Shown here: positions 1 through 48,634 of the stretch, one piece after another
Layout: every line of letters begins with the position of its first letter
Position numbering within the stretch: the first letter of the stretch is position 1
Origin: an uncultured Methanosarcinales archaeon
GTDB taxonomy: Archaea > Nanobdellota > Nanobdellia > Woesearchaeales > DSVV01
Direction of reading: 5' to 3'
Assembly (NCBI GenBank): GCA_964453185.1
Contig: CAYVNN010000002.1
Location: forward strand, 274,308-338,307
Length of the DNA: 64,000 nucleotides
Position numbers and translations under genes: made by a program
Notes under the pieces: generated by a model
The model's input: only the letters and a program-made list of their open reading frames with translations
Told to the model about the DNA's origin: nothing
Databases searched by the model: none

Positions 1-1270
1 AATTCTTAGAGATAGATTACGAAATGCAGAATATGATGCAAGAACAATTTCTGCTCAATTTAGTGTTACAAATTTAGGTTATATGATTGATTCAGGAGAA
101 TTTAGCACACATCCTGAAAAACTTGTACAAACAGCATTAAAAAGACATTATAGAGATGAAAGGAAAAAAACTCAGGGGAGAGTTAACTTTGTTGTTCCAG
201 GAACACAATTCCTAAGAGATGAAGTTGGTGTTTCAGGAACTAATCTTTTTAGAGCTAAAGAAGTTTGGCCAGAAATTGGAGTATCAAAATATGATTTATT
301 AAGAGATATAAGATTACCATTATCTATTGGCCTAATGGAAGCAATTCTATTAGGTGTGGTTATAGGAGATGGAAATATTCTTGGTATGGAAAAAAGGAAA
401 AAGAGATATAGATTAGAGTTATGGGGTAGAAATGATGACTTTGAATTATATGATTTATTACTTGATCCTTTATTTTTAGACATATTTAATTGTGATTTAC
501 AAGAATTAGAATCAAGTGGTGGAAAAGATAAAAATGGAGTTACTTATACTTATAATATTCCTGGAAGGATTATCTCATCAAAAGCTATCATGACTTGGTT
601 AACAGAACATCTTGATTTAAGTATAGATAGATCTCATAAACAATTACCTTCTCTTTTAACATATGATCCAAAAGCAACAAAGATTCATAAAAAAGGATTG
701 TTTATGGGATTAGTTGCTTCAGAAGCTAGAATATATTCTTTTGAAGAAGAAGGTAGGATAAGATGGAAAATGCAAATTCATTCATCTGATAGAAGATACT
801 TAACTCAAATTAGTCAATTAGCAAATACTCTTAGATATGACTCTAGAATAAATGGAAGGTCATCTAAAGGAGATAGAACATCATATTATTTAAGTTTCTC
901 TCCAGCAGATATTGTGGATATGTTATTTAATGGATTGTTTATTAATCCAAGACATGTTTTAGAAACAATTCCTCTAATGTTAGCTAATTGTCAACCAACT
1001 CATGTTTTTGATAGATTAGATCCTGCTCATAGAGATTTTTATGATAGACTTGTTGTACTTTATAATTGTGGTGTGCATACTGATGAAATCCATTCTCATC
1101 TAGATGTAAATCTATTCCATGATTCCTTAGGTACAGATGCTCTTGGTTCTGTTCTTCATGCAGGTAATCTGGGGTATAGGGTTGTTCATTCTCAAGGTGT
1201 ATTGACTATGCCATTAGAACCAGTATGTCGAGCCTATGATGAACTACTATTACAGCAAGAATCAGCTTAA
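1..1270 (+). CDS. LAGLIDADG-type homing-endonuclease-like protein, 5' end truncated by window edge
   Basis: The reading frame is open from window position 2 into the annotated ORF, so the gene continues upstream. Two LAGLIDADG-like motifs are present: LLGVVIGDGNI and KGLFMGLVASEA. No HN-(C/S/T) intein C-terminal junction was seen. Confidence 0.4.
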   Translation, partial: ILRDRLRNAEYDARTISAQFSVTNLGYMIDSGEFSTHPEKLVQTALKRHYRDERKKTQGRVNFVVPGTQFLRDEVGVSGTNLFRAKEVWPEIGVSKYDLLRDIRLPLSIGLMEAILLGVVIGDGNILGMEKRKKRYRLELWGRNDDFELYDLLLDPLFLDIFNCDLQELESSGGKDKNGVTYTYNIPGRIISSKAIMTWLTEHLDLSIDRSHKQLPSLLTYDPKATKIHKKGLFMGLVASEARIYSFEEEGRIRWKMQIHSSDRRYLTQISQLANTLRYDSRINGRSSKGDRTSYYLSFSPADIVDMLFNGLFINPRHVLETIPLMLANCQPTHVFDRLDPAHRDFYDRLVVLYNCGVHTDEIHSHLDVNLFHDSLGTDALGSVLHAGNLGYRVVHSQGVLTMPLEPVCRAYDELLLQQESA

Positions 1271-7842: not shown

Positions 7843-8697
7843 TTATTTTAATCTCTTTCTTTTCATAGATTCAATTTCATCATTATAATTATCAGAACTA
7901 ACTACTTTTTCGTTTGTTTCTATTTCTAATTGTTTTCTAGCAATACCTGCAACAGCCCCACCTCTTTTTGCTGTATCTTTATTTTCATTGAAACCTTGTG
8001 CATTCTTCTTTTTTGCAATCTTTGTAGTTGAAGCTTCTCCCAACATGGTAAATATTAATTCTAAATCATTCATATGATCTCTTAAATTTTCTCTTTTCAA
8101 TCCTTTATGTTTCTTGTATTCAGCAGGTGTTAAACCGAATGTTGCTTTGCTGATTTCTGCTGTTAATATTGAATATTCTTTCCCTTTTTTAACTCCTCTT
8201 TTATCCCATTCATCAGTTAATTCATCTCTTACTGCTATTCCTCTAACTCTTTTCTCAATCCAATCATCAGAATAACCTTTTGCTTTGTATAATTCTCTCA
8301 TTCGTTTTTGAGTAAGTTCAGGTTTTTCAATTTCTTGTACTCTTTCATAACCTACTTTAGCTAACCATTTTTTGAAAGGTTCTGCTTTTGGAGAAGGAAT
8401 TGATTGGATTATTCTAAAAATGCCTTCAGTATTAGCACAGTCAGTAACTCGCATTTTACCATCATCTGCGAGTAATTTCAACTGGTGACAAAATGTCACC
8501 ACTTCACTTCCTTCTTCTCTAAGTCTTTGACTAAGCTTATTCCAATATTTCCTTGATCTTTGATATTCTTGCTGATCTACTAAAATAGCAACAACATCAA
8601 TTACAGAAAAATACCATTCTTCATTATACCATTGTCTCCGAATCTTTTTGTCTTGAAATACAATTAGTGATTTATCTGATTCTTTAATGACTAACAC
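7843..8697 (-). CDS. Bro-N domain / DNA-damage-inducible protein D (DinD)-like protein, paralog 1
   Basis: An N-terminal Bro-N-like segment (IRRQWYNEEWYFSVIDVVAIL) is present. The C-terminal HKGLKRENLRDHMNDLEL...KKKNAQGF region resembles E. coli DinD (RKGLKKNQKILDHMGSTEL...). About 60% identical to the ORF at 40841..41680. Confidence 0.65.
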   Translation of the reverse strand: MLVIKESDKSLIVFQDKKIRRQWYNEEWYFSVIDVVAILVDQQEYQRSRKYWNKLSQRLREEGSEVVTFCHQLKLLADDGKMRVTDCANTEGIFRIIQSIPSPKAEPFKKWLAKVGYERVQEIEKPELTQKRMRELYKAKGYSDDWIEKRVRGIAVRDELTDEWDKRGVKKGKEYSILTAEISKATFGLTPAEYKKHKGLKRENLRDHMNDLELIFTMLGEASTTKIAKKKNAQGFNENKDTAKRGGAVAGIARKQLEIETNEKVVSSDNYNDEIESMKRKRLK

Positions 8698-19257: not shown

Positions 19258-20214
19258 ATGTTTAAAAAAAAGAGAAAAACAACAAAACCTAATTTTAAGA
19301 ACAGAGACATTATTTCTATAAACGATTTATCTAAGCAAGATATTGTTTATGTATTGGAAACAGCGAAGAAGATAGAATCAATGGATATTATAAAGAAATC
19401 AAAACTTTTAAAGAACAAAATAATGGCTTCTTTGTTTTTTGAACCAAGTACAAGAACAAGGCTCAGCTTTGAATCAGCTATGACTCAACTTGGTGGTGAA
19501 ATTATTGGATTTGCAGATCCAAAAGTAAGTTCAGCCACAAAAGGTGAGACAGTCTTTGATACTATCAAGATGTTGGATGTATATTCTAATGTTATTATTA
19601 TGCGGCATCCGTTAGAGGGTGCAGCACGAGTTGCTTCAGAAGCAACAGGTAAACCAGTTATAAATGGAGGAGATGGTGCTAATCAACATCCAACTCAAAC
19701 ATTACTTGATCTTTATAGTATTAAAAAAACACAAGGTAGAATTTCTGGATTAAAAGTAGCATTAGTTGGTGATCTAAAGTATGGAAGAACAGTACATAGT
19801 TTAGCAATTGCTTTAACACATTTTGGATGTAAACAATATTTTGTTTCTCCTTCTATTCTTAAAATGCCAAGTTCAATTTGTGCAGCACTTAAGGATAAAA
19901 ATATTGACTTTAGTCTTCATGAAAAAATTGTAGACATTCTTGATGAAGTTGATATTTTATATATGACGAGAATACAAAAGGAAAGATTTGGTGATCCATT
20001 AGAATATGAAAAGGTAAAAGATGTTTATGTCTTGACAAAAGATATGCTTAAGAATGCAAAAAAGAATTTGAAAGTAATGCATCCATTACCAAGAGTTAAT
20101 GAGATTAGTGTTGATGTTGACACCACACCTCATGCTTATTATTTTCAACAAGCCGCTAATGGAATTCCAATAAGACAAGCATTATTATCATTAACAACAG
20201 GGGTGCTAAAATGA
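19258..20214 (+). CDS. pyrB: Aspartate carbamoyltransferase catalytic subunit
   Basis: The STRTR motif (FFEPSTRTRLSFE), a HPTQ-like motif (ANQHPTQTLLDL) and a C-terminal HPLP motif. Confidence 0.9.
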   Translation: MFKKKRKTTKPNFKNRDIISINDLSKQDIVYVLETAKKIESMDIIKKSKLLKNKIMASLFFEPSTRTRLSFESAMTQLGGEIIGFADPKVSSATKGETVFDTIKMLDVYSNVIIMRHPLEGAARVASEATGKPVINGGDGANQHPTQTLLDLYSIKKTQGRISGLKVALVGDLKYGRTVHSLAIALTHFGCKQYFVSPSILKMPSSICAALKDKNIDFSLHEKIVDILDEVDILYMTRIQKERFGDPLEYEKVKDVYVLTKDMLKNAKKNLKVMHPLPRVNEISVDVDTTPHAYYFQQAANGIPIRQALLSLTTGVLK

Positions 20215-20660
20215 GAGCATACAAAGTTTTTGCAATTGAAAATGGTACAGTTATTGACCATATCAGTAAAGGTTGTGCATTAAAAGTTATTAATATCTTA
20301 AATCTTCAACAATATGATCAAATTGTCACTGTTGGTATTAATCTTGAGAGTAAAAAAGAGGGTAAAAAGGACATTATTAAGATTGAAGACAAGACACTAA
20401 CAAAAAACGAACTTAATAAGATTGCATTAGTTGCACCAGATGCTAGTATTAACATCATCAAAGATCATAAAGTAGTGAAGAAGTTTAAAGTAAATGTACC
20501 TGATGAAATTTTAACAACAATAAAATGCAATAATCCAAAATGTATTACAAACCACCAAGGTGTTGAAACAATCTTTAACAAAGTCTCTGTTTCTCCTCTT
20601 AAACTTAAATGTCATTATTGTGAAAGAATAGTTGAAAACTCAGAAATACATTTAATTTAG
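20211..20660 (+). CDS. pyrI: Aspartate carbamoyltransferase regulatory subunit
   Basis: 149 aa with C-terminal zinc-domain cysteines (CNNPKCITNH...CHYCE). The start overlaps the pyrB stop by 4 nt. Confidence 0.9.
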   Translation: MRAYKVFAIENGTVIDHISKGCALKVINILNLQQYDQIVTVGINLESKKEGKKDIIKIEDKTLTKNELNKIALVAPDASINIIKDHKVVKKFKVNVPDEILTTIKCNNPKCITNHQGVETIFNKVSVSPLKLKCHYCERIVENSEIHLI

Positions 20661-20679
20661 TTTATTGTTAGCACAGTTA

Positions 20680-20817
20680 GCATTTAAACCAGCGCCTTGA
20701 GTCATTATCAAATATCCACATCACATCGCACTAAAAGTCGCAGGCGTTAGTCTTGTTTCACTTTGTACCAGACTCGCCCTGGTTTAAATGCGTACTAAAA
20801 GAGCCGTTGTGGTACTA
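20680..20817 (+). repeat. Structured intergenic repeat, copy R2 (type-1 stem), between pyrI and pyrD
   Basis: Same block order as R1 and 85-90% identical to it. The stem gcatttaaaccag/ctggtttaaatgc is perfect. The tail is agagccgttgtggtacta. Confidence 0.75.
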
Positions 20818-20841
20818 TTTATTATTTTTATGAGGAACTAA

Positions 20842-21756
20842 ATGTTAAAAACAAAATTATTAGGTGTTGAACTAAATAATCCTACTATTTTAGCCTCTGG
20901 TGTTTTGGGAGTGACTTCTGCATCATTATTAAAAATACTAAACCAAGGAGCAGGTGCAGTTACATTAAAATCATTAAGTCTTAAGCCAAGAACAGGACAT
21001 AATAATCCAGTTATTATTACTAATGAAAATTGGATTATGAATGCAGTTGGGTTATCTAATTCTGGAATTAATCATGGCATTGAGATAATTAATGAATTAA
21101 AAAAGAAATCACCAAAACCAGTTATTGCAAGTATATTTGCTTCTTCAATTGAAGAATTTGGATTACTTGCTCAGAAGATTTCTAAGTCATGCCCTGATTT
21201 AGTTGAAGCAAACATTTCATGTCCTAATGTTGAAGACGAGTTTGGTACACCATTCGCAGCAGAAGGTAAAGCAGCAGCTAAGGTTACAAAATTAATTAAA
21301 TCAAAGCTTGGCAAAATTCCGTTGAGTATAAAACTTTCTCCAAATGTATCAAATATTGCATTTATTGCAAAAGAAGTTGAAAAGGCTGGAGCAGATTGTA
21401 TAACTGCATGTAATACTGCAGGTCCTGCAATGTGTATAAATCTTGAAACAGCTAGGCCCATTCTTAAAAATAAGAGAGGGGGACTAAGTGGTCCAGCAAT
21501 TAGACCAATCGTTGTAAGGTGTGTTTATGATATTTATGAGGCAGTTAACATACCAATAATTGCAACAGGCGGAATAACAACAGGTAAGGATGCAATTGAA
21601 ATGATAATGGCTGGAGCAACAGGTATTGGAATTGGTTCAGGTGTTCATTATCGTGGTGTTGATATTTTTAAGAAGATAACTAAAGAAATGGAACAATGGA
21701 TGAAAAAAAATAATTACAAATCATTGGATGAGATAAGAGGGATTGCACATGTGTAA
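20842..21756 (+). CDS. pyrD: Dihydroorotate dehydrogenase (type 1B) catalytic subunit
   Basis: TIM-barrel DHOD motifs: ILASGVLG, NISCPN, GGITTGKDAIEMIMAGATGIGIGS. Confidence 0.85.
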   Translation: MLKTKLLGVELNNPTILASGVLGVTSASLLKILNQGAGAVTLKSLSLKPRTGHNNPVIITNENWIMNAVGLSNSGINHGIEIINELKKKSPKPVIASIFASSIEEFGLLAQKISKSCPDLVEANISCPNVEDEFGTPFAAEGKAAAKVTKLIKSKLGKIPLSIKLSPNVSNIAFIAKEVEKAGADCITACNTAGPAMCINLETARPILKNKRGGLSGPAIRPIVVRCVYDIYEAVNIPIIATGGITTGKDAIEMIMAGATGIGIGSGVHYRGVDIFKKITKEMEQWMKKNNYKSLDEIRGIAHV

Positions 21757-22555
21757 TAATAAACACCTTCCTATTGTGTTAAAGATTGATAAAATTGTTG
21801 AAGAGAGTAGTTTAATTAAAACATTTGTATTTAAGTATTCATTAAAAGCTTCACCTGGACAATTTATTAATGTTTGGCTTCCTGGTTTAGATGAAAAACC
21901 AATGAGTATTAGTTATCAAGATAATAACAGATTTGCATTTAGTGCTGCTGCTGTTGGTCCTTTTACAAAAACTTTACATAAACTAAAACAAGGGGATAAA
22001 TTAGGTATTCGTGGACCATATGGTAATGGGTTTGATGTAAAAGATTACAAAGATATTGTTATTATTGGTGGTGGTTGTGGTTGTGCTCCAATTATGTTTT
22101 TAGCAAATTATGCAAAATTGAAAGGGATTAACCCATTATTGATCATTGGTGCAAAAACAAAAGATGAAATTGCATTTAGAGAAAGAGTTTCAAATGCTTA
22201 TATTAAAACATTGTATTCAACTGATGATGGTAGTTTTGGTTTTAAAGGATTCACAACACAACTATTAGAAAAATTAATCTTAGAAAAAAGAAAGATTGAT
22301 TGTGTGTTTTGTTGTGGCCCAGAAATTATGATGAAAAAAATTGTTGAGTTATGTAATAAGTACAATATTAATTGTCAAGTTTCTTTAGAAAGAATGATGA
22401 AGTGTTCAATTGGTATATGTGGTAGTTGTTGTTTAGATAATACTGGTTGGAGAGTATGTAAAGAAGGACCTGTTTTTGATAAAGAAAAGGTTATTCAAAT
22501 AACTGAGTTTGGGGAATACAAAAGAGATAAATCTGGTTCAAAGGTGTTATTATGA
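21743..22555 (+). CDS. pyrK: Dihydroorotate dehydrogenase electron-transfer subunit
   Basis: FAD/NAD-binding ferredoxin-reductase-like fold with a C-terminal 2Fe-2S cysteine cluster (CSIGICGSCC...C). It overlaps pyrD. Confidence 0.85.
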   Translation: MHMCNNKHLPIVLKIDKIVEESSLIKTFVFKYSLKASPGQFINVWLPGLDEKPMSISYQDNNRFAFSAAAVGPFTKTLHKLKQGDKLGIRGPYGNGFDVKDYKDIVIIGGGCGCAPIMFLANYAKLKGINPLLIIGAKTKDEIAFRERVSNAYIKTLYSTDDGSFGFKGFTTQLLEKLILEKRKIDCVFCCGPEIMMKKIVELCNKYNINCQVSLERMMKCSIGICGSCCLDNTGWRVCKEGPVFDKEKVIQITEFGEYKRDKSGSKVLL

Positions 22556-23724
22556 ATGATTTATTAATTAAGAATTGTAAATTATCTACAAAAGATTTAA
22601 ATGTTATTAGGGATATTTTAATTGTTGATGGTAAAATAAGAAAAATTGGTAAAAATTTGATTAGTAATGTTAAAACATTTGATGTTTGTTATAATCATGT
22701 TATTCCTGGATTAGTTGATTCTCATGTTCATTTCAGAGACTTTGAACAAAAACATAAAGAAGATTGGCTTTCAGGATCAATTGCAGCATTATCTGGAGGA
22801 GTAACAACTGTTATGGATATGCCAAATAATAATCCTTCAATGTTAACTCTTGATTTACTTAAACAAAAAAGAAGATTAGCTAAAAAAACAAAGATTAATT
22901 CTTTCTTTCATTTTGGTTCTAGTAAAGATAATCTTGATGAAATCAGAAAAGCTTCATTAGAACATGATGTTGTTTCTACAAAGATTTACATGAATCATAC
23001 TACTGGGAATTTATTATTAAATAAAGATGAAGATTTAGATCTAATTTTTAGAACAGCCAAAATAATTTCTGTTCATGCTGAAAGTGAAATGCTAAAAAAG
23101 GCAATAAAATTAGCAAAAAAATATCATAATTATCTTTATGTTTGTCATGTTTCTTCAAGACAAGATCTGGATATTGTAAAGAAAGCTAAACAAGAATTAA
23201 AAAATAGAATCTTTTGTGAAGTAACACCTCATCATTTATTTTTAACAGAAAATGAAGAAAAAAAGCAAGGTGTATTTGCTAGGATGATGCCTTCATTAAA
23301 ATCTGGTAGAGATGTTCAGGCTTTATGGAAAGCTATTGCAGATGGTTATGTTGACACTATTGGTACAGACCATGCTCCGCATACTATTGAGGAAAAGAAA
23401 AAAGGAGCATTTGGTGTTCCTGGTGTTGAAACAATACTACCTTTATTATTGGATTCTGTTAACAATGGTGTTTTATCATTAACACAGGTTGTTAGGTTAT
23501 GTTCATCAAATCCAGCAGAGATTTTTGGTTTAAAAAATAAAGGGAAAATTAAACCTGGATATGATGGGGATTTAGTGGTTATTGATATGAATAAAAGAAA
23601 GAAAGTAGAACATTTAAAAACAAAATGTGGATGGAGTCCTTTTACAGGTAAAATATTAAAAGGATGGCCTCTATTAACTATAATAAAAGGGGAGATTTTG
23701 TGGGGGGATACAAGTGTCTTTTGA
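22552..23724 (+). CDS. pyrC: Dihydroorotase
   Basis: Amidohydrolase metal-binding motifs (DSHVHFRD, VHAE, GTDHAPH). Its position in the pyr operon supports the assignment. Confidence 0.75.
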   Translation: MNDLLIKNCKLSTKDLNVIRDILIVDGKIRKIGKNLISNVKTFDVCYNHVIPGLVDSHVHFRDFEQKHKEDWLSGSIAALSGGVTTVMDMPNNNPSMLTLDLLKQKRRLAKKTKINSFFHFGSSKDNLDEIRKASLEHDVVSTKIYMNHTTGNLLLNKDEDLDLIFRTAKIISVHAESEMLKKAIKLAKKYHNYLYVCHVSSRQDLDIVKKAKQELKNRIFCEVTPHHLFLTENEEKKQGVFARMMPSLKSGRDVQALWKAIADGYVDTIGTDHAPHTIEEKKKGAFGVPGVETILPLLLDSVNNGVLSLTQVVRLCSSNPAEIFGLKNKGKIKPGYDGDLVVIDMNKRKKVEHLKTKCGWSPFTGKILKGWPLLTIIKGEILWGDTSVF

Positions 23725-24391
23725 TGTGCATAAATTTGATGAGTTTCTTTTAAGAAATAATGTTGTTGGTTTTTTTGAGAATGAAATAACTTTAGTATCT
23801 GGTAGAAAATCACACTGGTATGCTAATTGTAGGGTTTTACAAGATAATGTTAATAATATTAATAGGTTATCTAAATTTATATTAAATTTTGTTGATGAAA
23901 GAAATCTTAGATTTGACTATTTTTTTGGTGTTCCAGAAGGTGTAACAAAATTAGCAACAGTTCTTAATTATAAAAGAGGGGTTATTAATGTTGACATGGA
24001 ACATAGATTAGTTATTGGCAGAGCAAAACCAAAATTGCATGGTATGCCCAAGGATAAATATTTTGTAGGTGATGTCAGACAAGATGATAGGGTTGTTATG
24101 ATTGAAGATGTTACAACAACAGGTGGATCATTATTAAGATCAATAGATAAGTTAAATGAAGTTGGTTTAAACATTGTTGCAGTGATTGGAATTGTGAACA
24201 GAATGGAAAAAAGGGATGATGGTAAATCAGTTGAACAAGCAATTGCAGCTAAAGGCATTCCTTACTTTTACTTAAGCAATTCATTAAGATTATTGCCAGT
24301 TGTTGCAAGAGATAAAAAGATTGATAAAGATATATTAAACAAAGTAGAACAAGGCTTTGAACAGTATGGTGTTGAGGTTTTAAAATTTTAA
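23714..24391 (+). CDS. pyrE: Orotate phosphoribosyltransferase
   Basis: PRPP-binding motif VVMIEDVTTTGGS and an N-terminal FxLxSGRxS region (ITLVSGRKSHWY). Confidence 0.75.
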   Translation: MSFDVHKFDEFLLRNNVVGFFENEITLVSGRKSHWYANCRVLQDNVNNINRLSKFILNFVDERNLRFDYFFGVPEGVTKLATVLNYKRGVINVDMEHRLVIGRAKPKLHGMPKDKYFVGDVRQDDRVVMIEDVTTTGGSLLRSIDKLNEVGLNIVAVIGIVNRMEKRDDGKSVEQAIAAKGIPYFYLSNSLRLLPVVARDKKIDKDILNKVEQGFEQYGVEVLKF

Positions 24392-24392
24392 A

Positions 24393-25253
24393 ATGGATTT
24401 CATAGAAAAACTAAAACAAAGAACAAAAGAAGTTAATTCCATTGTTTGCATGGGCTTAGATCCAGTTATTGATAAAATTCCTTTTCCTGAAGACGAGAAA
24501 AAAGAATCTCCGGGAAGAGTTATTGCATATTTTTATCTAGACATTCTTGAAGAAATGAAAAAACAAAATGTTTTCCCAGCAATTGTCAAACCAAACATCG
24601 CATTCTATGAACAATATGGTTTTGAAGGATTACATGCTCTAAAACTTATAATTACAAAATATAAAGAAGCAGGTATTCCTATTTTATTAGATGCAAAACG
24701 TGGTGATATTGGAAAAACCTCTAGAGCATATGCAAGAGCATTGTTTGACTTTTGGGATGCAGATGCAATCACAATTGCTCCTTACATGGGTTCAGATTCT
24801 GTTAGTCCATTTTTAGAATATTGTGAACAAGGAAAAGGTGTTTATGTTTTATGTAGAACTTCAAATAAAGGAGCTATTGACATGCAAAATTTAGTTGTTG
24901 GTGATGTTCCAATTTATATGAAAACAGCTGAAAAGATTTCTAATGATTGGTTTAAGCAAGGAATTGGTGCAGTAATTGGTGCAACATATCCTAAGGAGTT
25001 GGAAGAAATCTCTAAGTTTATGCAAAACAAACAAGTTCCGTTTTTAATACCTGGTGTAGGTGCGCAAGGTGGTTCAGCAACAGAAGTTGTTAAAGCATTG
25101 AAGAACTCTGGACAAGACATAAGTATTCATAGAATTAACTCTAGCAGTGGTATAAATTATGCTTATCTTAAGAAAAACACAGACAACTATGCCAAAGCAG
25201 CAGTAGATGCACTGAAAGAGTTAAATGAAGAAATAAATAAAAATTTAATTTAA
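24393..25253 (+). CDS. pyrF: Orotidine 5'-phosphate decarboxylase (long type-2 form)
   Basis: The LDAKRGDIGKTS catalytic Asp/Lys motif and a 286-aa length. It is the last gene of the pyr cluster. Confidence 0.75.
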   Translation: MDFIEKLKQRTKEVNSIVCMGLDPVIDKIPFPEDEKKESPGRVIAYFYLDILEEMKKQNVFPAIVKPNIAFYEQYGFEGLHALKLIITKYKEAGIPILLDAKRGDIGKTSRAYARALFDFWDADAITIAPYMGSDSVSPFLEYCEQGKGVYVLCRTSNKGAIDMQNLVVGDVPIYMKTAEKISNDWFKQGIGAVIGATYPKELEEISKFMQNKQVPFLIPGVGAQGGSATEVVKALKNSGQDISIHRINSSSGINYAYLKKNTDNYAKAAVDALKELNEEINKNLI

Positions 25254-40840: not shown

Positions 40841-41680
40841 TTATTTTAACTTCTTTTTATCTTTATTTTTTAAATAATTATCTTTAGATATAATTGATTC
40901 TCCTAAATTATTTTCTAAATCTTTTCTTGTTCTTTTTGCAATATTTCCACCTTTCTTAGCAGAATCTTTACATTCATCAAATCCTTGGGAATCTTTTTTC
41001 TTTGTTATGTCTGTAGTTGCTTTTTCTCCAATCATGTTTAAGATCAATTCCCAATCAGTCATGTGATCTCTTAAGTTTTGATTTGGTCTTTTTAGTCCTT
41101 TGTAATTCTTATATTCTCCTACTGTTTTTCCAAATGTAGCTTTACTAATTTCATTTGTTAATATTGCAAACTCTTTGCCTTCCTTAACATTTCTATTCTT
41201 CCATTCTTCTGTTAAATCTTGCCGTATTGCAATTCCTCTTAACCTTTTATCTATCCATTCCTTTGGATAACCTTTAAGTTCGTAATATTTTTTAATTCTA
41301 TCTTGTCCTAATTCAGGATTTTCTATTTCTTCAATTCTTTCATATCCAATCTGAGCTAACCATTGTTTAAATGGCTCTGCTTTCTTAGAAGGAATTGATT
41401 GAATAATTCTAAACATAGATTTAGTATTAGCACAGTCTGTAAGTCTCATTTTACCATCTTCTGCTTGTAGTTTCAACTGTACGATTATATCGTACACTTC
41501 AAATCCTTCTTCTTTTAATGTCCTTTTTAAATCAGACCAATACCTTTTTGGAATAGAACTTACTTCTAATGCTGTAACTACATCTACTACAGAAAAATAC
41601 CATTCATCATTATGCCATGTCCTTCTTATGTTTTTACCTTGAAAAACTACTAGTTTATTGACTTCCCCCATAAAAACCAC
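40841..41680 (-). CDS. Bro-N / DinD-like protein, paralog 2
   Basis: About 60% identical over its full length to the ORF at 7843..8697. The shared motifs are the same: NIRRTWHNDEWYFSVVDVV and YKGLKRPNQNLRDHMTDWELI. Confidence 0.65.
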   Translation of the reverse strand: MVFMGEVNKLVVFQGKNIRRTWHNDEWYFSVVDVVTALEVSSIPKRYWSDLKRTLKEEGFEVYDIIVQLKLQAEDGKMRLTDCANTKSMFRIIQSIPSKKAEPFKQWLAQIGYERIEEIENPELGQDRIKKYYELKGYPKEWIDKRLRGIAIRQDLTEEWKNRNVKEGKEFAILTNEISKATFGKTVGEYKNYKGLKRPNQNLRDHMTDWELILNMIGEKATTDITKKKDSQGFDECKDSAKKGGNIAKRTRKDLENNLGESIISKDNYLKNKDKKKLK

Positions 41681-41828: not shown

Positions 41829-42872
41829 ATGAGAAGAACATTATTATTGACAAGTCTTTTATTTGGATCTGCGCAGGCAGCAGAACCTTCTTTTCTTAGA
41901 CCTCTTGAGTTAGAACAACAAGTTTTATCTGATCCTACAACTTCAGTTGTACCAGCAGTACAATCTTCTCTTGAATTTGCTCAAAGAATTGAAGAAACAC
42001 TTAGAGCTCAACAAGTATTTAGTTGGGAAGCCGTTGCAGGATATCAAACATGTGAAGGGGTAGTTTTACAAATCCAACAATTTGATCCTCATTCACCAAG
42101 TCACATTTCATTGTATAGAATTGTGAATAGAAATAATGACCCACAAGATATAAATAATTTACACGTTTTAAAATATGATCCTGATTCAATTGATCCAACT
42201 TTATTTCATCCAGTCCTTGGTTACAGTGGGAATTATTTAGAATTACAAGAACCTCTAAAAGCTAGAGCAATAGCTTCTAGATATGAAATCTTTTTAGATG
42301 GTTTAAGGACAACAGTATATGAAATTAATTCAGACCTTAAAGAAAGAAGATTAGCATTGCTTCGTGAAGAAGATATTGACTATGCTAGGGCAGTTGGTCA
42401 AATTGACGAACAACATAAAACTTTTGAAGATGTTTTTCATGATTATTTTACCAATCTTAGAGGTTTAGAACATACTTCTCAATTATCTGATAAAACATAT
42501 AAAAAAACACGTTATTCTCATGGTTGGAAACTAACACCAAGAAGAAGTTCTCCTTGTAGAGAAACTGCAAAGAACGCTATGATTATGAAAAATCTTGCAG
42601 GAATTGATCGTGATGAATATGTAACTGTTATGTATGCTGATGGAGATAATTATGTTGTTTATAATGAAGCAACTGGTTTAACATATGACATTGAACAAAG
42701 AAGGGATAAACCTATTCAAGATATTTTACCAACAATACTTAGAAGACTAGAGGGACCTGTTCTTTTAGATGAGAGTATTTTTCCAGAGGGATTATCTACA
42801 AGACTTCCAAAATCAACTAGTATTCGACCACTAGGTTCTGAGAATTACAGATTTCTTTTATTAGAAGATTAA
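41829..42872 (+). CDS. Secreted hypothetical protein with bacterial-type signal peptide
   Basis: MRRTLLLTSLLFGSAQA|AEP is a classic Sec signal with an AxA cleavage site. The composition is atypical, and no known domain was recognised. Confidence 0.4.
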   Translation: MRRTLLLTSLLFGSAQAAEPSFLRPLELEQQVLSDPTTSVVPAVQSSLEFAQRIEETLRAQQVFSWEAVAGYQTCEGVVLQIQQFDPHSPSHISLYRIVNRNNDPQDINNLHVLKYDPDSIDPTLFHPVLGYSGNYLELQEPLKARAIASRYEIFLDGLRTTVYEINSDLKERRLALLREEDIDYARAVGQIDEQHKTFEDVFHDYFTNLRGLEHTSQLSDKTYKKTRYSHGWKLTPRRSSPCRETAKNAMIMKNLAGIDRDEYVTVMYADGDNYVVYNEATGLTYDIEQRRDKPIQDILPTILRRLEGPVLLDESIFPEGLSTRLPKSTSIRPLGSENYRFLLLED

Positions 42873-44008
42873 TCTTCTTTTGGTGTATACTTCTCAACTA
42901 TTTTAATAATTTCTTTAGCTGTTTTTTTCCAATTATAATTCTTAACAATTGTTTCTCTAGCTTTTCGACCTAAATATTCTCTTAACTCTTTGTCTTTATA
43001 CAGAATTTCAATTTTCATAGCTAATACTGTTGGGTTTTTGAACGGAAACAACATACCATTCTCTCTTTCTTTAATATATTCTTTAACATAACCAACTGGT
43101 GTAACAACAGGAGGAATACCACAAGCCATTGCTTCCATTGTTGCTAATGATGTTGTCTCAGTTAAACTTGACAATACAAAAACATCCATTGTTTGAAGAT
43201 AAGGAACAACATTATCTTGTGAACCAACCATAATAATATTTCTTGAAGAACTAAACTCTTCTTCTAAATCTTTTATTCCTTTTCCAACAATAAGTAATTT
43301 AACATTATCATATTTTCTTTCTAACCTTCTAAATGCTCTATATAATGTTATTAAATTTTTTTCTCTACCTATTCTTCCACAAAAGCCAATAACAAATGTT
43401 CCTTTCTCAACAGCCAATAAATCTTTAGCCTTTTCTTTATTTTTTGTTGGAACAAATATTTCTGTATCAGTTCCTAACGCAACAACCTCTTTGCTTGCTT
43501 TAATACCTACTTTTGTTAATTTTTCTAATGTTTCAAGAGAAGGACATATTAATAAATCACATTTACTATAGAAATATTTAGCTAATGTTTTTGTTCCGAT
43601 ATTAATTGCATGTTTAAATCTGTCAATACTTTTTGTTGTTAATTCCCAATCAATTGAATGTATGTATGAAATAACAGGTTTATTATATTTTTTTGCAGCT
43701 AAAATTCCACACATTCCAATTGGACCAATGCATTGATTAAATACAACATCTGCTTTTTCAATTATTTTTTTAATTTTTGAATATTCAAATTTACTAAAAT
43801 AAATATCTGCAACTTCCATATTGTACAATGGCAATCTAATAACAACTGCTCCAGTGATTCCTTTAAACTTACCTGGAAACTTAGGTGCTAAGACAGTTAT
43901 CTTATATTCATCTTTTAGTTTTGGAATTATCTCTGATAAAAACCTAGTTACACCATCCCATCTGGGCATAAAACAATCAGTTGTTATTACAAGATGTTTT
44001 TTCTTCAT
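42869..44008 (-). CDS. Glycosyltransferase family 4 (PIG-A/BshA/MshA-like)
   Basis: C-terminal motif SSLTETTSLATMEAMACGIPPVVTPVG. The likely start is MKKKHLVITTD. The longer annotated start would overlap a repeat element. Confidence 0.7.
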   Translation of the reverse strand: MKKKHLVITTDCFMPRWDGVTRFLSEIIPKLKDEYKITVLAPKFPGKFKGITGAVVIRLPLYNMEVADIYFSKFEYSKIKKIIEKADVVFNQCIGPIGMCGILAAKKYNKPVISYIHSIDWELTTKSIDRFKHAINIGTKTLAKYFYSKCDLLICPSLETLEKLTKVGIKASKEVVALGTDTEIFVPTKNKEKAKDLLAVEKGTFVIGFCGRIGREKNLITLYRAFRRLERKYDNVKLLIVGKGIKDLEEEFSSSRNIIMVGSQDNVVPYLQTMDVFVLSSLTETTSLATMEAMACGIPPVVTPVGYVKEYIKERENGMLFPFKNPTVLAMKIEILYKDKELREYLGRKARETIVKNYNWKKTAKEIIKIVEKYTPKED

Positions 44009-44025
44009 TTTTATTACCTTAACTA

Positions 44026-44154
44026 ATAATGCCACCGCTTTAAGCATTAGTACTGTCGCCTTGGCTCACTATCAAATAAAATCATAAGTACGCACTAAAC
44101 TATGTTGCGTTAGTAGTATCTGCACATATAGTCAGAGCCGCCACAGTACTAGTG
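44026..44154 (+). repeat. Structured intergenic repeat, copy R7 (composite: partial type-3 5' arm + type-4 element gcattagtactgt/acagtactagtgc)
   Basis: aataatgccaccgc, then gcattagtactgt-CGCCTTGGCTCACTATC...cgcactaaactatgttgcg...cAGAGCCGCC-acagtactagtgc. Confidence 0.65.
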
Positions 44155-44165
44155 CCTTGCTATTA

Positions 44166-44831
44166 TTATTTTATTTTAGTAAATACCTCAGCATATCTAT
44201 ATCCATATTCTAAACCATTTAATATTGCTCTAGTATAAATTATTGGTATCATTTGTAATAATACCATCTTCTGGCTGTTATGTAATTTAAATGCTTTGAT
44301 CATAACATCTAAAGTTTTAGTAATATCTACAACAAGTTTTGGTTCATTTCTTTTTCTAATATTAATTGGGTTCCATACATCAAATGAATAGACATCACAT
44401 TTATACTTTAATTCATTTAATATTTCTAATATTATTTTTAATACTGCTTGATGATCTGGGTGTGGGTCATCTATTGAATGCGTAAAGATTTTTGTTGGCT
44501 TTTTTTCTTTTATCACTCTTGTAACACTTTTTTTAAGATCTTTATTCTTGAACTCTTCTTTAAACTTTCCTTCCTTTAATCCATAGTATATAACTCCACT
44601 TCCTCCCATTACTTTATCACATTTCTGTGATTCAACAACTCTTGTTTCAACAATTGCCTTTCTATTGTAATGTGGATGAGAGCTTTCACCATATGAAAAT
44701 ATGTATGTATAGAAATTCTTGCCTTCTTTTGCATATTTAACTAATGTTCCACCACAACCAATTACTTGGTCATCATTATGTGCACAGAAAACAAACACAT
44801 TTTCTTCTTTCTTACTATCTTGATTCTTCAT
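44166..44831 (-). CDS. PIG-L / LmbE family N-acetylglucosaminyl deacetylase
   Basis: VFCAHNDDQVIGCGG matches the AHPDDE motif, and HPDH is also present. 221 aa. Confidence 0.7.
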   Translation of the reverse strand: MKNQDSKKEENVFVFCAHNDDQVIGCGGTLVKYAKEGKNFYTYIFSYGESSHPHYNRKAIVETRVVESQKCDKVMGGSGVIYYGLKEGKFKEEFKNKDLKKSVTRVIKEKKPTKIFTHSIDDPHPDHQAVLKIILEILNELKYKCDVYSFDVWNPINIRKRNEPKLVVDITKTLDVMIKAFKLHNSQKMVLLQMIPIIYTRAILNGLEYGYRYAEVFTKIK

Positions 44832-45096: not shown

Positions 45097-47721
45097 ATGG
45101 AGAAAAATGTATACTTTTTTGGAGCAGGAAAAACAGATGGAAATCAATCAATGAAGGAAGAATTGGGAGGAAAAGGTGCAAATCTAGCAGAAATGGCTAA
45201 TTTAGGAATAAATGTTCCACCTGGCTTTACAATCTCAACAAAGGCATGTGAATTATTTTATGAATCTAATAAAACATTACCACTTAATGTTCTTGAAGAA
45301 ATTCATCAGAATCTAGAACAACTAGAATCTTCTATGGGTAAAAAACTAGGAGATATAAATGATCCATTGCTAGTATCAGTAAGAAGTGGAGCAGCTATCT
45401 CAATGCCAGGAATGATGGATACTGTTCTTAATTTGGGGCTAAATGATACAACAATACAAGCATTAATACAAAAGAGTAATAATCCCAGATTTGCTTATGA
45501 TGCATACAGACGATTATTACAAATGTTTGGAGATGTTGTAATGAATGTTTCCCATACTAAGTTTGAACATGCATTAACAAAATTAAAAGAGACAAAAGGA
45601 GTTAAGTATGATACAGAATTAAATTCAGATGATCTAAAATCTTTAATTGAATCATATAAACAAATAATTAAAGAAACCACTGGTAAAGATTTTCCACAAG
45701 AACCAATTGAACAGCTTAATATGGCTGTCTCTGCGGTTTTCTCTTCGTGGAATAATAATAGAGCAATTTCATACAGAAGGATTAATAAAATTCATGGATT
45801 AAAAGGAACAGCAGTTAATGTTCAATCAATGGTATTTGGTAATATGGGTGAATCATCAGGTACAGGTGTTTGTTTTACAAGAGATCCATCAACAGGTGCA
45901 AAAGTATTTTATGGTGAATATTTAATGAATGCACAAGGTGAAGATGTTGTTGCAGGTACCAGAACACCACAACCACTTGATACACTAAATAATGTAATGA
46001 CAAACTGTTATCAAGAACTTACTGCTATTATGGACAAATTAGAAAAACATTATACAGATATGCAAGACATGGAATTTACAATTCAGGAAGGTAAATTATA
46101 TATTTTACAGACAAGAACAGGTAAAAGAACAGCACATGCAGCAGTTAAGATTGCAGTCGACATGGAACAGGAAGGATTAATTAACAAAGAAACTGCAATA
46201 TTAAGAGTTCAACCTGATCAATTAGATCAATTATTACATAAACAATTAGATGCTGTTGCAAAACAAGAAGCAGAGATTGTTGCCAAAGGTTTACCTGCTT
46301 CACCTGGTGCAGCTGTTGGCCAGGTTGTGTTTAATGCAGATGATGCGAAGAAATGGGCAGATGAAGGTAAAATTGTTATTTTAGTAAGAACAGAAACATC
46401 ACCTGAAGATATTGAAGGTATGCATGCAGCTCAAGGTATCTTAACATCACGAGGAGGGATGACTTCACATGCAGCAGTTGTTGCAAGAGGAATGGGTAAA
46501 TGTTGTGTTGCAGGTTGTGATGATGTTTTGATTAAAGAAAATGAAAGATTCATGCAGGTTGCTGATTTAAAAATAAATGAAGGTGATTGGATTACACTTG
46601 ATGGTTCAACAGGTGAAGTTATTAATGGTAAAATGCCTGTTGTTGATCCTGAGTTAAAGAGTGAGTTTAAAACATTAATGTCGTGGGCAGATGAAGTTAA
46701 GACATTAATTGTTAGAACAAACGCTGACACACCATATGATTCAAAAGTTGCTAGGGATTTTGGTGCAGAAGGAATTGGCTTATGTAGAACTGAGCATATG
46801 TTTTTTGAAGGTGACAGAATTAAAGCAGTTAGAGAGATGATTCTTTCAAAAGATCTCGACGGAAGAAAAAATGCTTTGGCAAAACTTAAACCAATGCAAA
46901 AGAATGATTTTAAAGGATTGTTTGAAGTAATGAGTGGTCATCCAGTTGTAATTAGATTACTTGATCCTCCATTACACGAATTCTTACCAAAAGAAGATGA
47001 AGATATTAAAACAATGGCAACAGAGATGAATATTGAAGTTAATAAAATCAAAGACTTAATCAAATCATTACATGAGTTCAATCCTATGCTTGGTTTCAGA
47101 GGATGTAGATTAGCAGTAAGATATCCAGAGATTGGAGAAATGCAAGCTCAGGCAATACTTGAAGCAGCAGTAGAAGCAAAACAACAAGGACATGATGCAC
47201 AACCATGGATTGAAGTTCCATTGATTGGAGATGTTAAAGAGTTTACATTGGTTAAAGACATTATTGAAAATGTTGCAAATGGATTAAATTTAGAGAGAGG
47301 GAGAGATTATCAAATTGGAACAATGATTGAAGTTCCGAGAGCAGCATTAACAGCAGACGAGATTGCAAAAGAAACAGACTTTATGTCTTTCGGTACAAAT
47401 GATTTAACTCAAATGGGTTGTGGATTTAGTAGAGATGATTCAGGTAAATTTCTTAGTGAATATGTTGAAAAAGGGATCTATGCTGTAGATCCTTTCCAAA
47501 GCATTGATCAGCAAGGAATTGGTGAGTTGATGAAGATTTGTGTTAACAAAGCTAGATCAATTAAACCTGATATACATATTGGTATTTGCGGTGAACATGC
47601 TGGTGAACCTGTATCAGTTGAATTCTGTCATAAGATAGGATTAAACGATGTAAGCTGTTCTCCATACAGGGTACCAATAGCTAGACTAGCAGCAGCACAT
47701 GCAGTTATTAAAGGTAAGTAA
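45097..47721 (+). CDS. ppdK: Pyruvate, phosphate dikinase
   Basis: The 874-aa length, the N-terminal GGKGANLAEM ATP-grasp region, the phospho-His region GGMTSHAAVVARGMG, and the C-terminal PEP-utilising TIM barrel with GICGE. Confidence 0.85.
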   Translation: MEKNVYFFGAGKTDGNQSMKEELGGKGANLAEMANLGINVPPGFTISTKACELFYESNKTLPLNVLEEIHQNLEQLESSMGKKLGDINDPLLVSVRSGAAISMPGMMDTVLNLGLNDTTIQALIQKSNNPRFAYDAYRRLLQMFGDVVMNVSHTKFEHALTKLKETKGVKYDTELNSDDLKSLIESYKQIIKETTGKDFPQEPIEQLNMAVSAVFSSWNNNRAISYRRINKIHGLKGTAVNVQSMVFGNMGESSGTGVCFTRDPSTGAKVFYGEYLMNAQGEDVVAGTRTPQPLDTLNNVMTNCYQELTAIMDKLEKHYTDMQDMEFTIQEGKLYILQTRTGKRTAHAAVKIAVDMEQEGLINKETAILRVQPDQLDQLLHKQLDAVAKQEAEIVAKGLPASPGAAVGQVVFNADDAKKWADEGKIVILVRTETSPEDIEGMHAAQGILTSRGGMTSHAAVVARGMGKCCVAGCDDVLIKENERFMQVADLKINEGDWITLDGSTGEVINGKMPVVDPELKSEFKTLMSWADEVKTLIVRTNADTPYDSKVARDFGAEGIGLCRTEHMFFEGDRIKAVREMILSKDLDGRKNALAKLKPMQKNDFKGLFEVMSGHPVVIRLLDPPLHEFLPKEDEDIKTMATEMNIEVNKIKDLIKSLHEFNPMLGFRGCRLAVRYPEIGEMQAQAILEAAVEAKQQGHDAQPWIEVPLIGDVKEFTLVKDIIENVANGLNLERGRDYQIGTMIEVPRAALTADEIAKETDFMSFGTNDLTQMGCGFSRDDSGKFLSEYVEKGIYAVDPFQSIDQQGIGELMKICVNKARSIKPDIHIGICGEHAGEPVSVEFCHKIGLNDVSCSPYRVPIARLAAAHAVIKGK

Positions 47722-47850: not shown

Positions 47851-48039
47851 ATTTTAAGGCTAAGATAATTAATAATCTTTCTCAGAATCAAAAATCGATC
47901 AATCACATCTTTCGAGTAAGGTTTTTACCGCCGTAAGACGAACCTATAGGATTCAACTCCGAAAACCTCTGCTTTCGAATGCGATTGACCAAGACTATTT
48001 CTGACAGAACTCATATTTAAATTTATTGAAAATAAAGAA

Positions 48040-48156
48040 TGCGCCGGCCGAGATTCGAATTTCCGGTTGCTTTAGGCAACGCTCGGATCAACGGCTCCCT
48101 TCTTAGCTATTAAGCCAAATGGAAGGCCGCTATACTAGCCATTGTACTACCGGCGC
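48040..48156 (-). tRNA. tRNA-Gly (anticodon UCC) with two putative introns (anticodon loop 37/38 and T-arm 53/54)
   Basis: The minus-strand transcript is GCGCCGG UA GUAC AAUGGCUA GUAU A GCGGC CUUCCA[23-nt intron]A GCCGU UGAU CCGAG[22-nt intron with GUUGC-CUAAA-GCAAC hairpin] UUCGAAU CUCGG CCGGCGC A. It has a perfect acceptor stem, the consensus T-loop UUCGAAU and the archaeal tRNA-Gly 5' end GCGCCGGUAG. No CCA is encoded. Confidence 0.6.
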
Positions 48157-48190
48157 ATACAACCGTAAGAAATGTGATTTATTTATAAAT

Positions 48191-48634
48191 TTAACGTTCA
48201 ATCATATCAATTCTTCTTTGATGTCTTCCACCTTCAAATTCTGTAGATAAAAATGTATCTATCATTCTATAAGCATCTTCAGGACTTAAACCATTCCCAT
48301 CTATTCCTCTAGCACCTAAACATAATATATTAGCATTATTATGTCCTTTTGCCATTCTAACTAAATAATCAGAATTACATACTGCTGCTCTTATTCCACT
48401 GTATTTATTAGCAGTCATTGCCATACCTTGTCCTGTTCCACATATAAGAATGCCTATGTCATCTTCACCTTTTTGTACTGCTTCAGCAACTTTATGAGCA
48501 TAATCTGGATAATGACAACTCTCTGCACTATAACAACCAACATCTTCATAAGTTAATCCTTTGCCTTCAAACCACTCAATTATCTTTTGTTTTAGATCAA
48601 ATCCACCATGATCACATCCAATGTAAACTTTCAT
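48191..48634 (-). CDS. rpiB: Ribose-5-phosphate isomerase B
   Basis: MKVYIGCDHGGFDLK N-terminus in a 147-aa RpiB/LacAB-family protein. Confidence 0.8.
   Translation of the reverse strand: MKVYIGCDHGGFDLKQKIIEWFEGKGLTYEDVGCYSAESCHYPDYAHKVAEAVQKGEDDIGILICGTGQGMAMTANKYSGIRAAVCNSDYLVRMAKGHNNANILCLGARGIDGNGLSPEDAYRMIDTFLSTEFEGGRHQRRIDMIER

Follow-up and report, generated by a model that had tools for sequence, protein, structure and literature searches.

Sequence Evidence for a tRNA-Gly(UCC) Gene with a Canonical and a T-arm Intron in a DPANN-type Archaeon

INTRODUCTION

The presence of up to three introns in archaeal tRNA genes, including introns at non-canonical positions, is well documented, above all in the Thermoproteales (PMC4033280, PMC8450103). 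The multi-intron tRNAs of that order (Sugahara 2008, Fujishima 2010), taken here as they are presented in these two reviews, form a system with which the present locus is compared. The requirements of the splicing endonuclease EndA depend on its type: α4 and α2 enzymes require a strict hBHBh′ (bulge-helix-bulge, BHB) motif, and (αβ)2 and ε2 enzymes also cleave relaxed motifs, the strict form being reported as cleaved by every archaeal EndA type (PMC3239211).

Among DPANN archaea, an intron at position 53/54 with a strict BHB has been described in the tRNA-Pro(GGG) of ARMAN-2 (PMC3239211, Fig. 1C). Kaneta et al. (2018) predicted the tRNA genes of Pacearchaeota and Woesearchaeota genomes (PMC5829648), and tRNA gene disruption is markedly raised in those DPANN lineages that carry an “L3” loop in their α4-type EndA (PMC5829648). 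Multiple and non-canonical introns, the 53/54 site, and the raised tRNA disruption of DPANN archaea are already published, and conceptually nothing new is required by the gene described here. A clade-wide 53/54 intron of DPANN tRNA-Gly(UCC) was not found described in a literature search.

The present gene lies in a 64-kb stretch of archaeal DNA, the whole of which is referred to below as the window. It shares with the ARMAN-2 tRNA-Pro gene a DPANN-type host, a 53/54 intron with a strict BHB, and the presence of more than one intron (PMC3239211). The two differ in that the present gene specifies glycine rather than proline and has its other intron at 37/38 rather than 59/60. The EndA of ARMAN-2 is of the ε2 type.

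RESULTS

Structure of the tRNA-Gly(UCC) Gene

All three exons were delimited from the Rfam alignment, from ARAGORN analysis of the spliced sequence, and from alignment with an intron-less orthologue, which gave the following features.

48156..48040, minus strand (RNA 5′ end at 48156, 3′ end at 48040): tRNA-Gly(UCC) gene, 117 nt, three exons and two introns
48120..48156, minus strand: exon 1, 37 nt, acceptor 5′ strand, D-arm, anticodon stem 5′ strand, and C32-A37 with the anticodon UCC
48097..48119, minus strand: intron 1, 23 nt, UUUGGCUUAAUAGCUAAGAAGGG, canonical position 37/38
48082..48096, minus strand: exon 2, 15 nt, AGCCGUUGAUCCGAG, A38, anticodon stem 3′ strand, 4-nt variable loop, and T-stem 5′ strand (49-53)
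48060..48081, minus strand: intron 2, 22 nt, CGUUGCCUAAAGCAACCGGAAA, non-canonical position 53/54
48040..48059, minus strand: exon 3, 20 nt, UUCGAAUCUCGGCCGGCGCA, T-loop, T-stem 3′ strand, acceptor 3′ strand, and discriminator A73

The full 117-nt layout, 5′ to 3′ from 48156 to 48040 with introns in brackets, is as follows.

GCGCCGG UA GUAC AAUGGCUA GUAU A GCGGC CUUCCA [UUUGGCUUAAUAGCUAAGAAGGG] A GCCGU UGAU CCGAG [CGUUGCCUAAAGCAACCGGAAA] UUCGAAU CUCGG CCGGCGC A

Splicing of this sequence in silico, which joins exons of 37, 15, and 20 nt, yields a canonical 72-nt tRNA. The textbook tRNA-Gly exons claimed in an earlier note on this DNA (acceptor, D-arm, anticodon stem, and T-loop) are all present, on the minus strand: the acceptor stem is GCGCCGG/CCGGCGC, the D-arm GUAC/GUAU, the anticodon stem GCGGC/GCCGU, and the T-stem CCGAG/CUCGG, with UUCGAAU as the T-loop. 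The two inserts, put in that note at roughly 23 nt after position 37 and roughly 22 nt between the T-stem 5′ strand and the T-loop, measure exactly 23 nt (48119..48097) and 22 nt (48081..48060). The spliced anticodon loop, CUUCCAA, places UCC at positions 34-36 between U33 and a purine at 37 and is identical to the loop of intron-less homologues. Inspection of the spliced sequence also reveals U8, A14, G18G19, G53:C61, U54U55C56, and A58. CCA is not encoded at the 3′ end of the gene.

The discriminator A73 and the base pairs C2:G71 and G3:C70 can likewise be read from the spliced sequence. Together they make up the archaeal and eukaryal glycine identity set recognized by GlyRS, and the identity elements of the spliced tRNA would be expected to suffice for charging with glycine.

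Two other kinds of interrupted gene were considered and rejected. A split or permuted tRNA gene is out, the three exons being collinear on one strand within 117 nt. Group I and group II introns are hundreds of nucleotides long and contain a ribozyme core; self-splicing introns of these groups are also out, as the inserts comprise just 23 and 22 nt and no Rfam intron family was matched.

BHB Motifs and Splice Junctions

A script that searches for BHB motifs (a 4-bp helix, 3-nt bulges on opposite strands, and closing helices on both sides) identified a strict 3-4-3 hBHBh′ at each of the two inserts. At intron 1, the H helix is CUUC/GAAG, the bulges are CAU and GGA, the inner helix has 6 bp, and the 7-bp outer helix corresponds to the anticodon stem. 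At intron 2, the H helix is UCCG/CGGA, the bulges are AGC and AAU, and the inner helix (h) consists of the 5 bp GUUGC/GCAAC, which is the GUUGC-CUAAA-GCAAC hairpin that the earlier note had considered compatible with a BHB. The 4-bp outer helix of this second motif is formed by the variable loop with nucleotides of the T-loop, and 3 of its 4 bp can form alongside a full anticodon stem.

Cuts between bulge nucleotides 2 and 3 excise exactly 48119..48097 and 48081..48060, leaving a CUUCCAA anticodon loop and the T-arm CCGAG-UUCGAAU-CUCGG. Neither junction is rendered ambiguous by sliding. For intron 1, homologues lacking the 37/38 intron read CTTCCA|AGCCG. An alternative register of 25 nt, in which A37 and A38 would both be removed, was rejected given that intron-less homologues read CUUCCAA and that the 3-4-3 geometry cuts at 37|38; the placement of intron 1 returned by ARAGORN itself (loop CUUCCGA) was rejected on the same grounds.

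The two BHBs are compatible with one another in a single fold of −40.7 kcal/mol. The nearest-neighbour minimum free energy (MFE) fold, at −48.4 kcal/mol, includes the H helix, 5′ bulge, and inner helix of intron 2, and its register at intron 1 is shifted by one nucleotide from the BHB register. The cloverleaf of the spliced 72-mer lies within 1.2 kcal/mol of its own MFE. When the 117-mer was shuffled at the mononucleotide level, 11.9% of the resulting sequences had one or more BHB-like motifs and just 1.3% had at least two strict motifs, tRNA-compatible junctions not being demanded of them.

Detection by Covariance Model and tRNA Finders

The Rfam tRNA family RF00005 matched 48040-48156 (minus strand) over the full length of the model (positions 1-71) with a score of 35.2 bits, as compared with a gathering score of 29. 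The E-value was 1.1e-5 in the local search and 0.0012 when the whole window was searched on both strands with all 4227 families. In the alignment, the anticodon loop accommodates 25 nt instead of 2 and the T-loop 29 nt instead of 7, so that the covariance model, which could have placed the tRNA differently, puts both insertions at the proposed sites. The match was recovered only in a permissive-filter mode, in which it was the sole RNA-family match in the window across all families; with gathering thresholds and default filters, Rfam returned nothing in the window.

ARAGORN likewise reported no genes in the whole window or in the local region, and nothing was found in the raw gene or after removal of insert 1 alone. 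Once both inserts had been removed, tRNA-Gly(tcc) was called, and with the -i option the removal of insert 2 alone gave tRNA-Gly(tcc) with a 23-nt intron in the anticodon loop. The ARAGORN check on the proposed gene is positive, but only after the T-arm insert is taken out. The same program finds no homologue that carries the T-arm intron, including L010, L023, and L075. The BHB intron models of tRNAscan-SE 2.0 were trained on Crenarchaeota/Euryarchaeota and Thaumarchaeota, and DPANN is unmentioned in the paper that describes them (PMC8450103).

Because ARAGORN and Rfam with default filters miss the window gene, and ARAGORN also misses its homologues with a T-arm intron, the tRNA complements of such metagenome-assembled genomes (MAGs) are likely under-counted. 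Under-counting of tRNA-Gly(UCC) would affect tRNA complements and the completeness and auxotrophy inferences drawn for DPANN MAGs.

Conservation of the 53/54 Intron

One genome per GTDB species was scanned with a pattern that required the same anticodon arm, the T-loop, a 3′ end reading ...CGCA, and extra sequence before the T-loop. This yielded 23 loci, namely four of Thermoproteus/Pyrobaculum type (L009, L017, L018, and L024) and 19 in low- or mid-GC MAGs. The labels of the latter are Woesearchaeota, Nanoarchaeota/Nanoarchaeia, “Euryarchaeota SM23-78,” “uncultured Methanosarcinales,” and one bacterial phylum, the last labels being doubtful. L012 (JAFCCF010000022.1), labelled an Aminicenantes bacterium, has a DPANN-type multi-intron archaeal tRNA-Gly, and its label or binning looks doubtful. 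The same can be said of the labels or binning of the “uncultured Methanosarcinales” binchicken loci L007, L010, L011, L014, L022, and L025-L029, which also have DPANN-type multi-intron tRNA-Gly genes.

A 3-4-3 BHB lies exactly at 53/54 in 23 of 24 sequences (window included), and its removal restores a 5-bp T-stem and a 7-nt T-loop. In L024, the T-arm intron is in a different register (∼51/52). Roughly half of the loci have a 37/38 intron. In ten loci (L008, L012, L014, L016, L019, L020, L021, L023, L025, and L028), the 5′ acceptor strand lies 45-115 nt, and not 25-29 nt, upstream of position 27, which implies a third intron; this further intron, of 21-89 nt, is located in the D-arm (D-loop or D-stem). 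L020 and L021 resolve cleanly into three-intron tRNA-Gly(UCC) genes with a BHB at all three sites.

Covariation at intron 2, and at this intron only, was assessed in 23 sequences, comprising 22 homologues and that of the window. There are 20 distinct inner-helix strands at 53/54, with pairing maintained. Each strand pairs with its own partner at 5.64 of 6 positions, as opposed to 3.57 of 6 with the partners from other sequences, and none of 5000 permutations reached the observed value. In a register-fixed alignment, 99.4% of cells were paired, a percentage that is inflated because the comparative BHB register was picked by the motif search itself, and slid controls were at most 56% paired. Six of the eight pairs had changed on both sides. 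The double-change count, which is free of that inflation, was 42 cells as compared with 10.9 in shuffles (0 of 500 reached the observed count). In addition, one H-helix pair covaries jointly with the T-stem (CUGGG/CCCAG).

When an outer helix of at least 2 bp was demanded of the homologues, most loci failed; relaxing this demand gave 53/54 motifs of the relaxed type. The outer helix has just 0-1 bp in most relatives, compared with 4 bp in the window, L010, and L023. Nine loci (L007, L008, L014, L016, L017, L018, L022, L023, and L029) gave no complete automatic solution, which is attributed to relaxed motifs of their 37/38 or D-arm introns; the 53/54 intron was still parsed in each.

Comparison of the window gene with the Woesearchaeota/Nanoarchaeota-type MAG loci (L007-L029 without the four Thermoproteales loci, and L075, which was found in a second scan described below) shows that they share the 53/54 intron, the H helix UCCG/CGGA, the 3′ bulge AAU, a TATA box at about −32, and often PIG-L/GT4 neighbours. 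L010 and L023 resemble the window further in the type of D-arm and variable loop and in the 4-bp outer helix. The window differs from the DPANN set in having the shortest intron 2 (22 nt as compared with 26-32 nt), a 5′ bulge of AGC rather than GGA, and A-U as T-stem pair 52:62. Many DPANN relatives have a relaxed outer helix and the third, D-arm intron that the window gene lacks, and about half are without the 37/38 intron.

The Pyrobaculum/Thermoproteus tRNA-Gly(UCC) genes (L009, L017, L018, and L024) agree with the window in isoacceptor, anticodon arm, and intron positions 37/38 and 53/54. The layout of the 53/54 BHB is also alike, the H helix being formed by the T-stem 5′ strand and the 3′ end of the intron, with GGA as the 5′ bulge in the Thermoproteales. 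By contrast, the Thermoproteales are high-GC, hyperthermophilic Thermoproteota with an (αβ)2 EndA, and their 53/54 intron, which has a 3-bp G-C inner helix, is mostly 17-19 nt long (28 nt in L024). The introns of the two groups have no sequence similarity beyond what the exons constrain, which fits either a common origin or parallel insertion.

Intron-less Relatives

A first scan of metagenomes, with a pattern anchored on the D-arm, yielded 0 matches; given that a JGI contig carries the locus, the JGI sample evidently lies outside the scanned collection. In a second scan of metagenome contigs, either intron was allowed to be absent, and 71 loci (L030-L100) were recovered. Eight of the 71 genes are intron-less. 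Six of these are on low-GC contigs (L045, L049, L050, L064, L089, and L099 are included among the intron-less low-GC genes), five of the six having the acceptor stem of the window gene. A further 36 genes, of Thermoproteales type, have the 37/38 intron alone and 24 have both the 37/38 and the 53/54 intron, a split that indicates presence of the 53/54 intron in some relatives and its absence in others. On Thermoproteales-type high-GC contigs, the exon sequence within the matched region (anticodon stem through T-loop) is identical whether or not the 53/54 intron is present. Eight homologues (gap-2 length 3) and the 36 Thermoproteales-type loci (gap-2 length 4) have an uninterrupted CCGGG|TTCGAAT.

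L050 and L064 show synteny with the window: their genes for PheRS-alpha, TrmB (73-74% identity), tRNA-Gly, PIG-L deacetylase, and GT4 glycosyltransferase are ordered and oriented as they are there. Their tRNA-Gly(UCC) gene has no introns; ARAGORN detects it, and its Rfam score is 67.8 bits. It is identical to the in silico spliced window gene at 65 of 72 positions, and the gaps introduced by MAFFT when the window gene is aligned with this orthologue fall exactly at both predicted introns. The T-stem difference between the two is compensatory (A52-U62 in the window, G-C in L050/L064).

Linkage of tRNA-Gly(UCC) to a PIG-L gene was observed in the window (42869-44831) and in L008, L011, L012, L020, L049, L050, L064, L075, L089, L095, and L099. 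A GT4 glycosyltransferase gene is also present in 8 of 11 PIG-L-linked loci, and L011 and L012 share the PIG-L/GT4 neighbours of the window. Among the loci compared, only the window has a PPDK gene (45097-47721) between the tRNA gene and PIG-L.

Genomic Context, Promoter, and Terminator

The tRNA gene is located in a 470-nt spacer between rpiB (48191-48634, minus strand) and the PPDK gene (45097-47721, plus strand). Two elements flank it.

48182..48189, minus strand: TATA-box-like sequence TTTATAAA, −33 to −26 from the mature 5′ end and 2 nt past the rpiB stop codon (48193..48191)
48029..48039, minus strand: T-rich tract TTCTTTATTTT, read from the sequence directly after A73

By its sequence and position, TTTATAAA may act as an archaeal TATA box, which would leave a short leader. 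A TATA box (at least a 7/8 match to TTTAWATA) starting between −35 and −30 was found in 14 of 20 DPANN-type homologous loci, the window counted. The T-rich tract is a probable archaeal transcription terminator, a function suggested by its composition and placement, and T-rich tracts are also present at most homologous loci. A scan for sigma-70 promoters and intrinsic terminators gave nothing, the models used not being applicable to archaea.

Six independent assemblies (JGI, ENA, Logan) agree at 100% identity over the tRNA gene and 120 nt on each side of it, which indicates that the locus is not an assembly artefact. The window is ∼30% G+C and, by a simple ORF call, ∼92% coding. Archaeal markers in it include L34e, L19e, L32e, L18/L5e, L30, Sec61-type SecY, Orc1/Cdc6, SMC, SerRS, and archaeal PheRS alpha and beta. 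The host is a low-GC, small-genome, DPANN-type archaeon. No Pfam match to tRNA_int_endo (EndA) or RtcB was obtained for the 60 of 68 window ORFs scanned, together with five covered by another search. The 64-kb window is a small fraction of the genome for such a search, and the EndA and RtcB genes, absent from the window, are assumed to lie elsewhere.

DISCUSSION

Proposed Processing of the Precursor

The observed structure of the gene, the geometry of its BHB motifs, and its exact junctions, together with conservation and covariation, support the interpretation of the locus as a genuine tRNA-Gly(UCC) gene with a canonical 37/38 intron and a non-canonical 53/54 T-arm intron, each with a BHB. 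In our judgement it is very probably a functional, independently transcribed gene of a low-GC DPANN-type archaeon, the two introns of which are spliced by proteins.

Expression of the gene, the enzymes involved, and the order of the steps are inferred, and we envisage them as follows. Transcription would be driven by the putative TATA box at −33, start a few nucleotides upstream of G1, and terminate within the T-rich tract. The anticodon loop of the precursor would pair with the 3′ portion of intron 1 (CUUC/GAAG), and U48-G51, of the variable loop and T-stem, would pair with the 3′ portion of intron 2 (UCCG/CGGA). EndA could then cut each of the four bulges of the two coexisting 3-4-3 BHBs between nucleotides 2 and 3, after which an RtcB-type ligase would join the exons of 37, 15, and 20 nt. 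The ends would be trimmed by RNase P and RNase Z, with CCA supplied by the CCA-adding enzyme. Given that the second H helix uses T-stem nucleotides 49-51 and that its outer helix uses the T-loop, the T-arm would be expected to fold only after intron 2 has been removed.

Alternative Interpretations

The locus might instead be a decaying tRNA pseudogene that has acquired two insertions and lost the ability to be processed to a functional tRNA. Such an origin would fit with the failure of the standard finders (ARAGORN and Rfam with default filters) to detect it, with a covariance model score about half of that of the intron-less orthologue (35.2 versus 67.8 bits), and with the fact that close syntenic relatives do without introns. 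However, none of the three exons is damaged, and splicing leaves a tRNA with all conserved positions and stems in place. The inserts are moreover not random, as each forms a strict BHB, cutting of which regenerates the tRNA with no nucleotide lost or gained. Across ∼20 species, compensatory changes have preserved the T-arm intron together with its BHB; the promoter box is conserved, and the sequence is invariant in six samples. Decay of the gene is, on this evidence, highly unlikely.

We also consider it highly improbable that only the 37/38 intron is spliced and that the T-arm insert is either retained, giving an expanded T-region, or removed by a mechanism other than EndA. The classical α4 and α2 enzymes were first described at the canonical site (PMC3239211), and the 53/54 outer helix of 0-1 bp in most relatives would also be in line with retention. 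Against this, an insert between G53 and U54 would block the T-stem and T-loop that a functional tRNA needs, and the exact 3-4-3 geometry with cuts at 53|54 recurs in 23 of 24 sequences. The motif in the window is, furthermore, a strict hBHBh′, the type of substrate reported as cleaved by all EndA types (PMC3239211), strict-BHB introns at 53/54 are documented in the ARMAN-2 tRNA-Pro (PMC3239211, Fig. 1C), and the uninterrupted CCGGG|TTCGAAT is present in the eight homologues and 36 Thermoproteales-type loci.

A chance resemblance or an assembly artefact, for which could be cited the frequency of TATA-like strings in an AT-rich genome and the 11.9% of 117-mer shuffles with at least one BHB-like motif, is effectively refuted by the Rfam E-value of 0.0012 for the whole window and all families, by the six identical independent assemblies, and by the orthologues at the syntenic position.

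Endonuclease Type and Age of the 53/54 Intron

The earlier note took multiple and non-canonical introns to be informative about the type of splicing endonuclease. This does not hold for the window gene, which by itself does not discriminate the EndA type, as both of its motifs are strict. It does hold for the relatives, where the relaxed motifs, with just 0-1 bp in the outer helix, suggest that the clade has an enzyme of broad specificity.

More speculatively, the 53/54 intron could be an old, selectively maintained trait of tRNA-Gly(UCC) across much of the Woesearchaeota/Pacearchaeota/Nanoarchaeota radiation, possibly with an origin shared with the Thermoproteales and with repeated lineage-specific loss (L050/L064). 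We regard this as a tentative proposal that is more probably wrong than right. If it were true, the α4-type EndA with an L3 loop that these DPANN lineages are reported to have would routinely handle relaxed T-arm motifs. It would also fit with disruption of the T-arm or 3′ half being kept because a favoured integrase attachment site is destroyed or a maturation checkpoint is provided.

The ∼20 DPANN tRNA-Gly loci with one, two, or three introns and the intron-less syntenic orthologue form a compact comparative set, which may serve the study of intron gain and loss and of the substrate range of DPANN splicing endonucleases. The practical value is mainly in annotation.

Other Features of the Window

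In the 318-nt spacer downstream of the tRNA gene, the segment 47823-47911 (minus strand) gave weak Rfam matches to eukaryotic C/D-box snoRNA families (15-19 bits, E-values of 2-9). CUGA-like and UGAU-rich boxes are visible in it. The segment may encode an archaeal C/D sRNA, or it may have no significance.

Two ORFs contain Bro-N domains, as is typical of viruses and mobile elements, and one 395-aa ORF has a sub-threshold match to LAGLIDADG_3 (20.2 bits, as compared with a cut-off of 22.5 bits). The Bro-N and LAGLIDADG_3-like ORFs are the following.

7843-8454, minus strand
40841-41671, minus strand
83-1270, plus strand

A pyrimidine biosynthesis cluster at 19258-25253 (plus strand) comprises pyrB, pyrI, pyrD, pyrK-like, pyrC-like, and pyrF genes. 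Within this interval, a phosphoribosyltransferase-like ORF at 23996-24391 is short (131 aa) and falls short of the Pfam cut-off. A gap of 272 nt lies directly upstream of it, and either truncation or a mis-called start may account for this.
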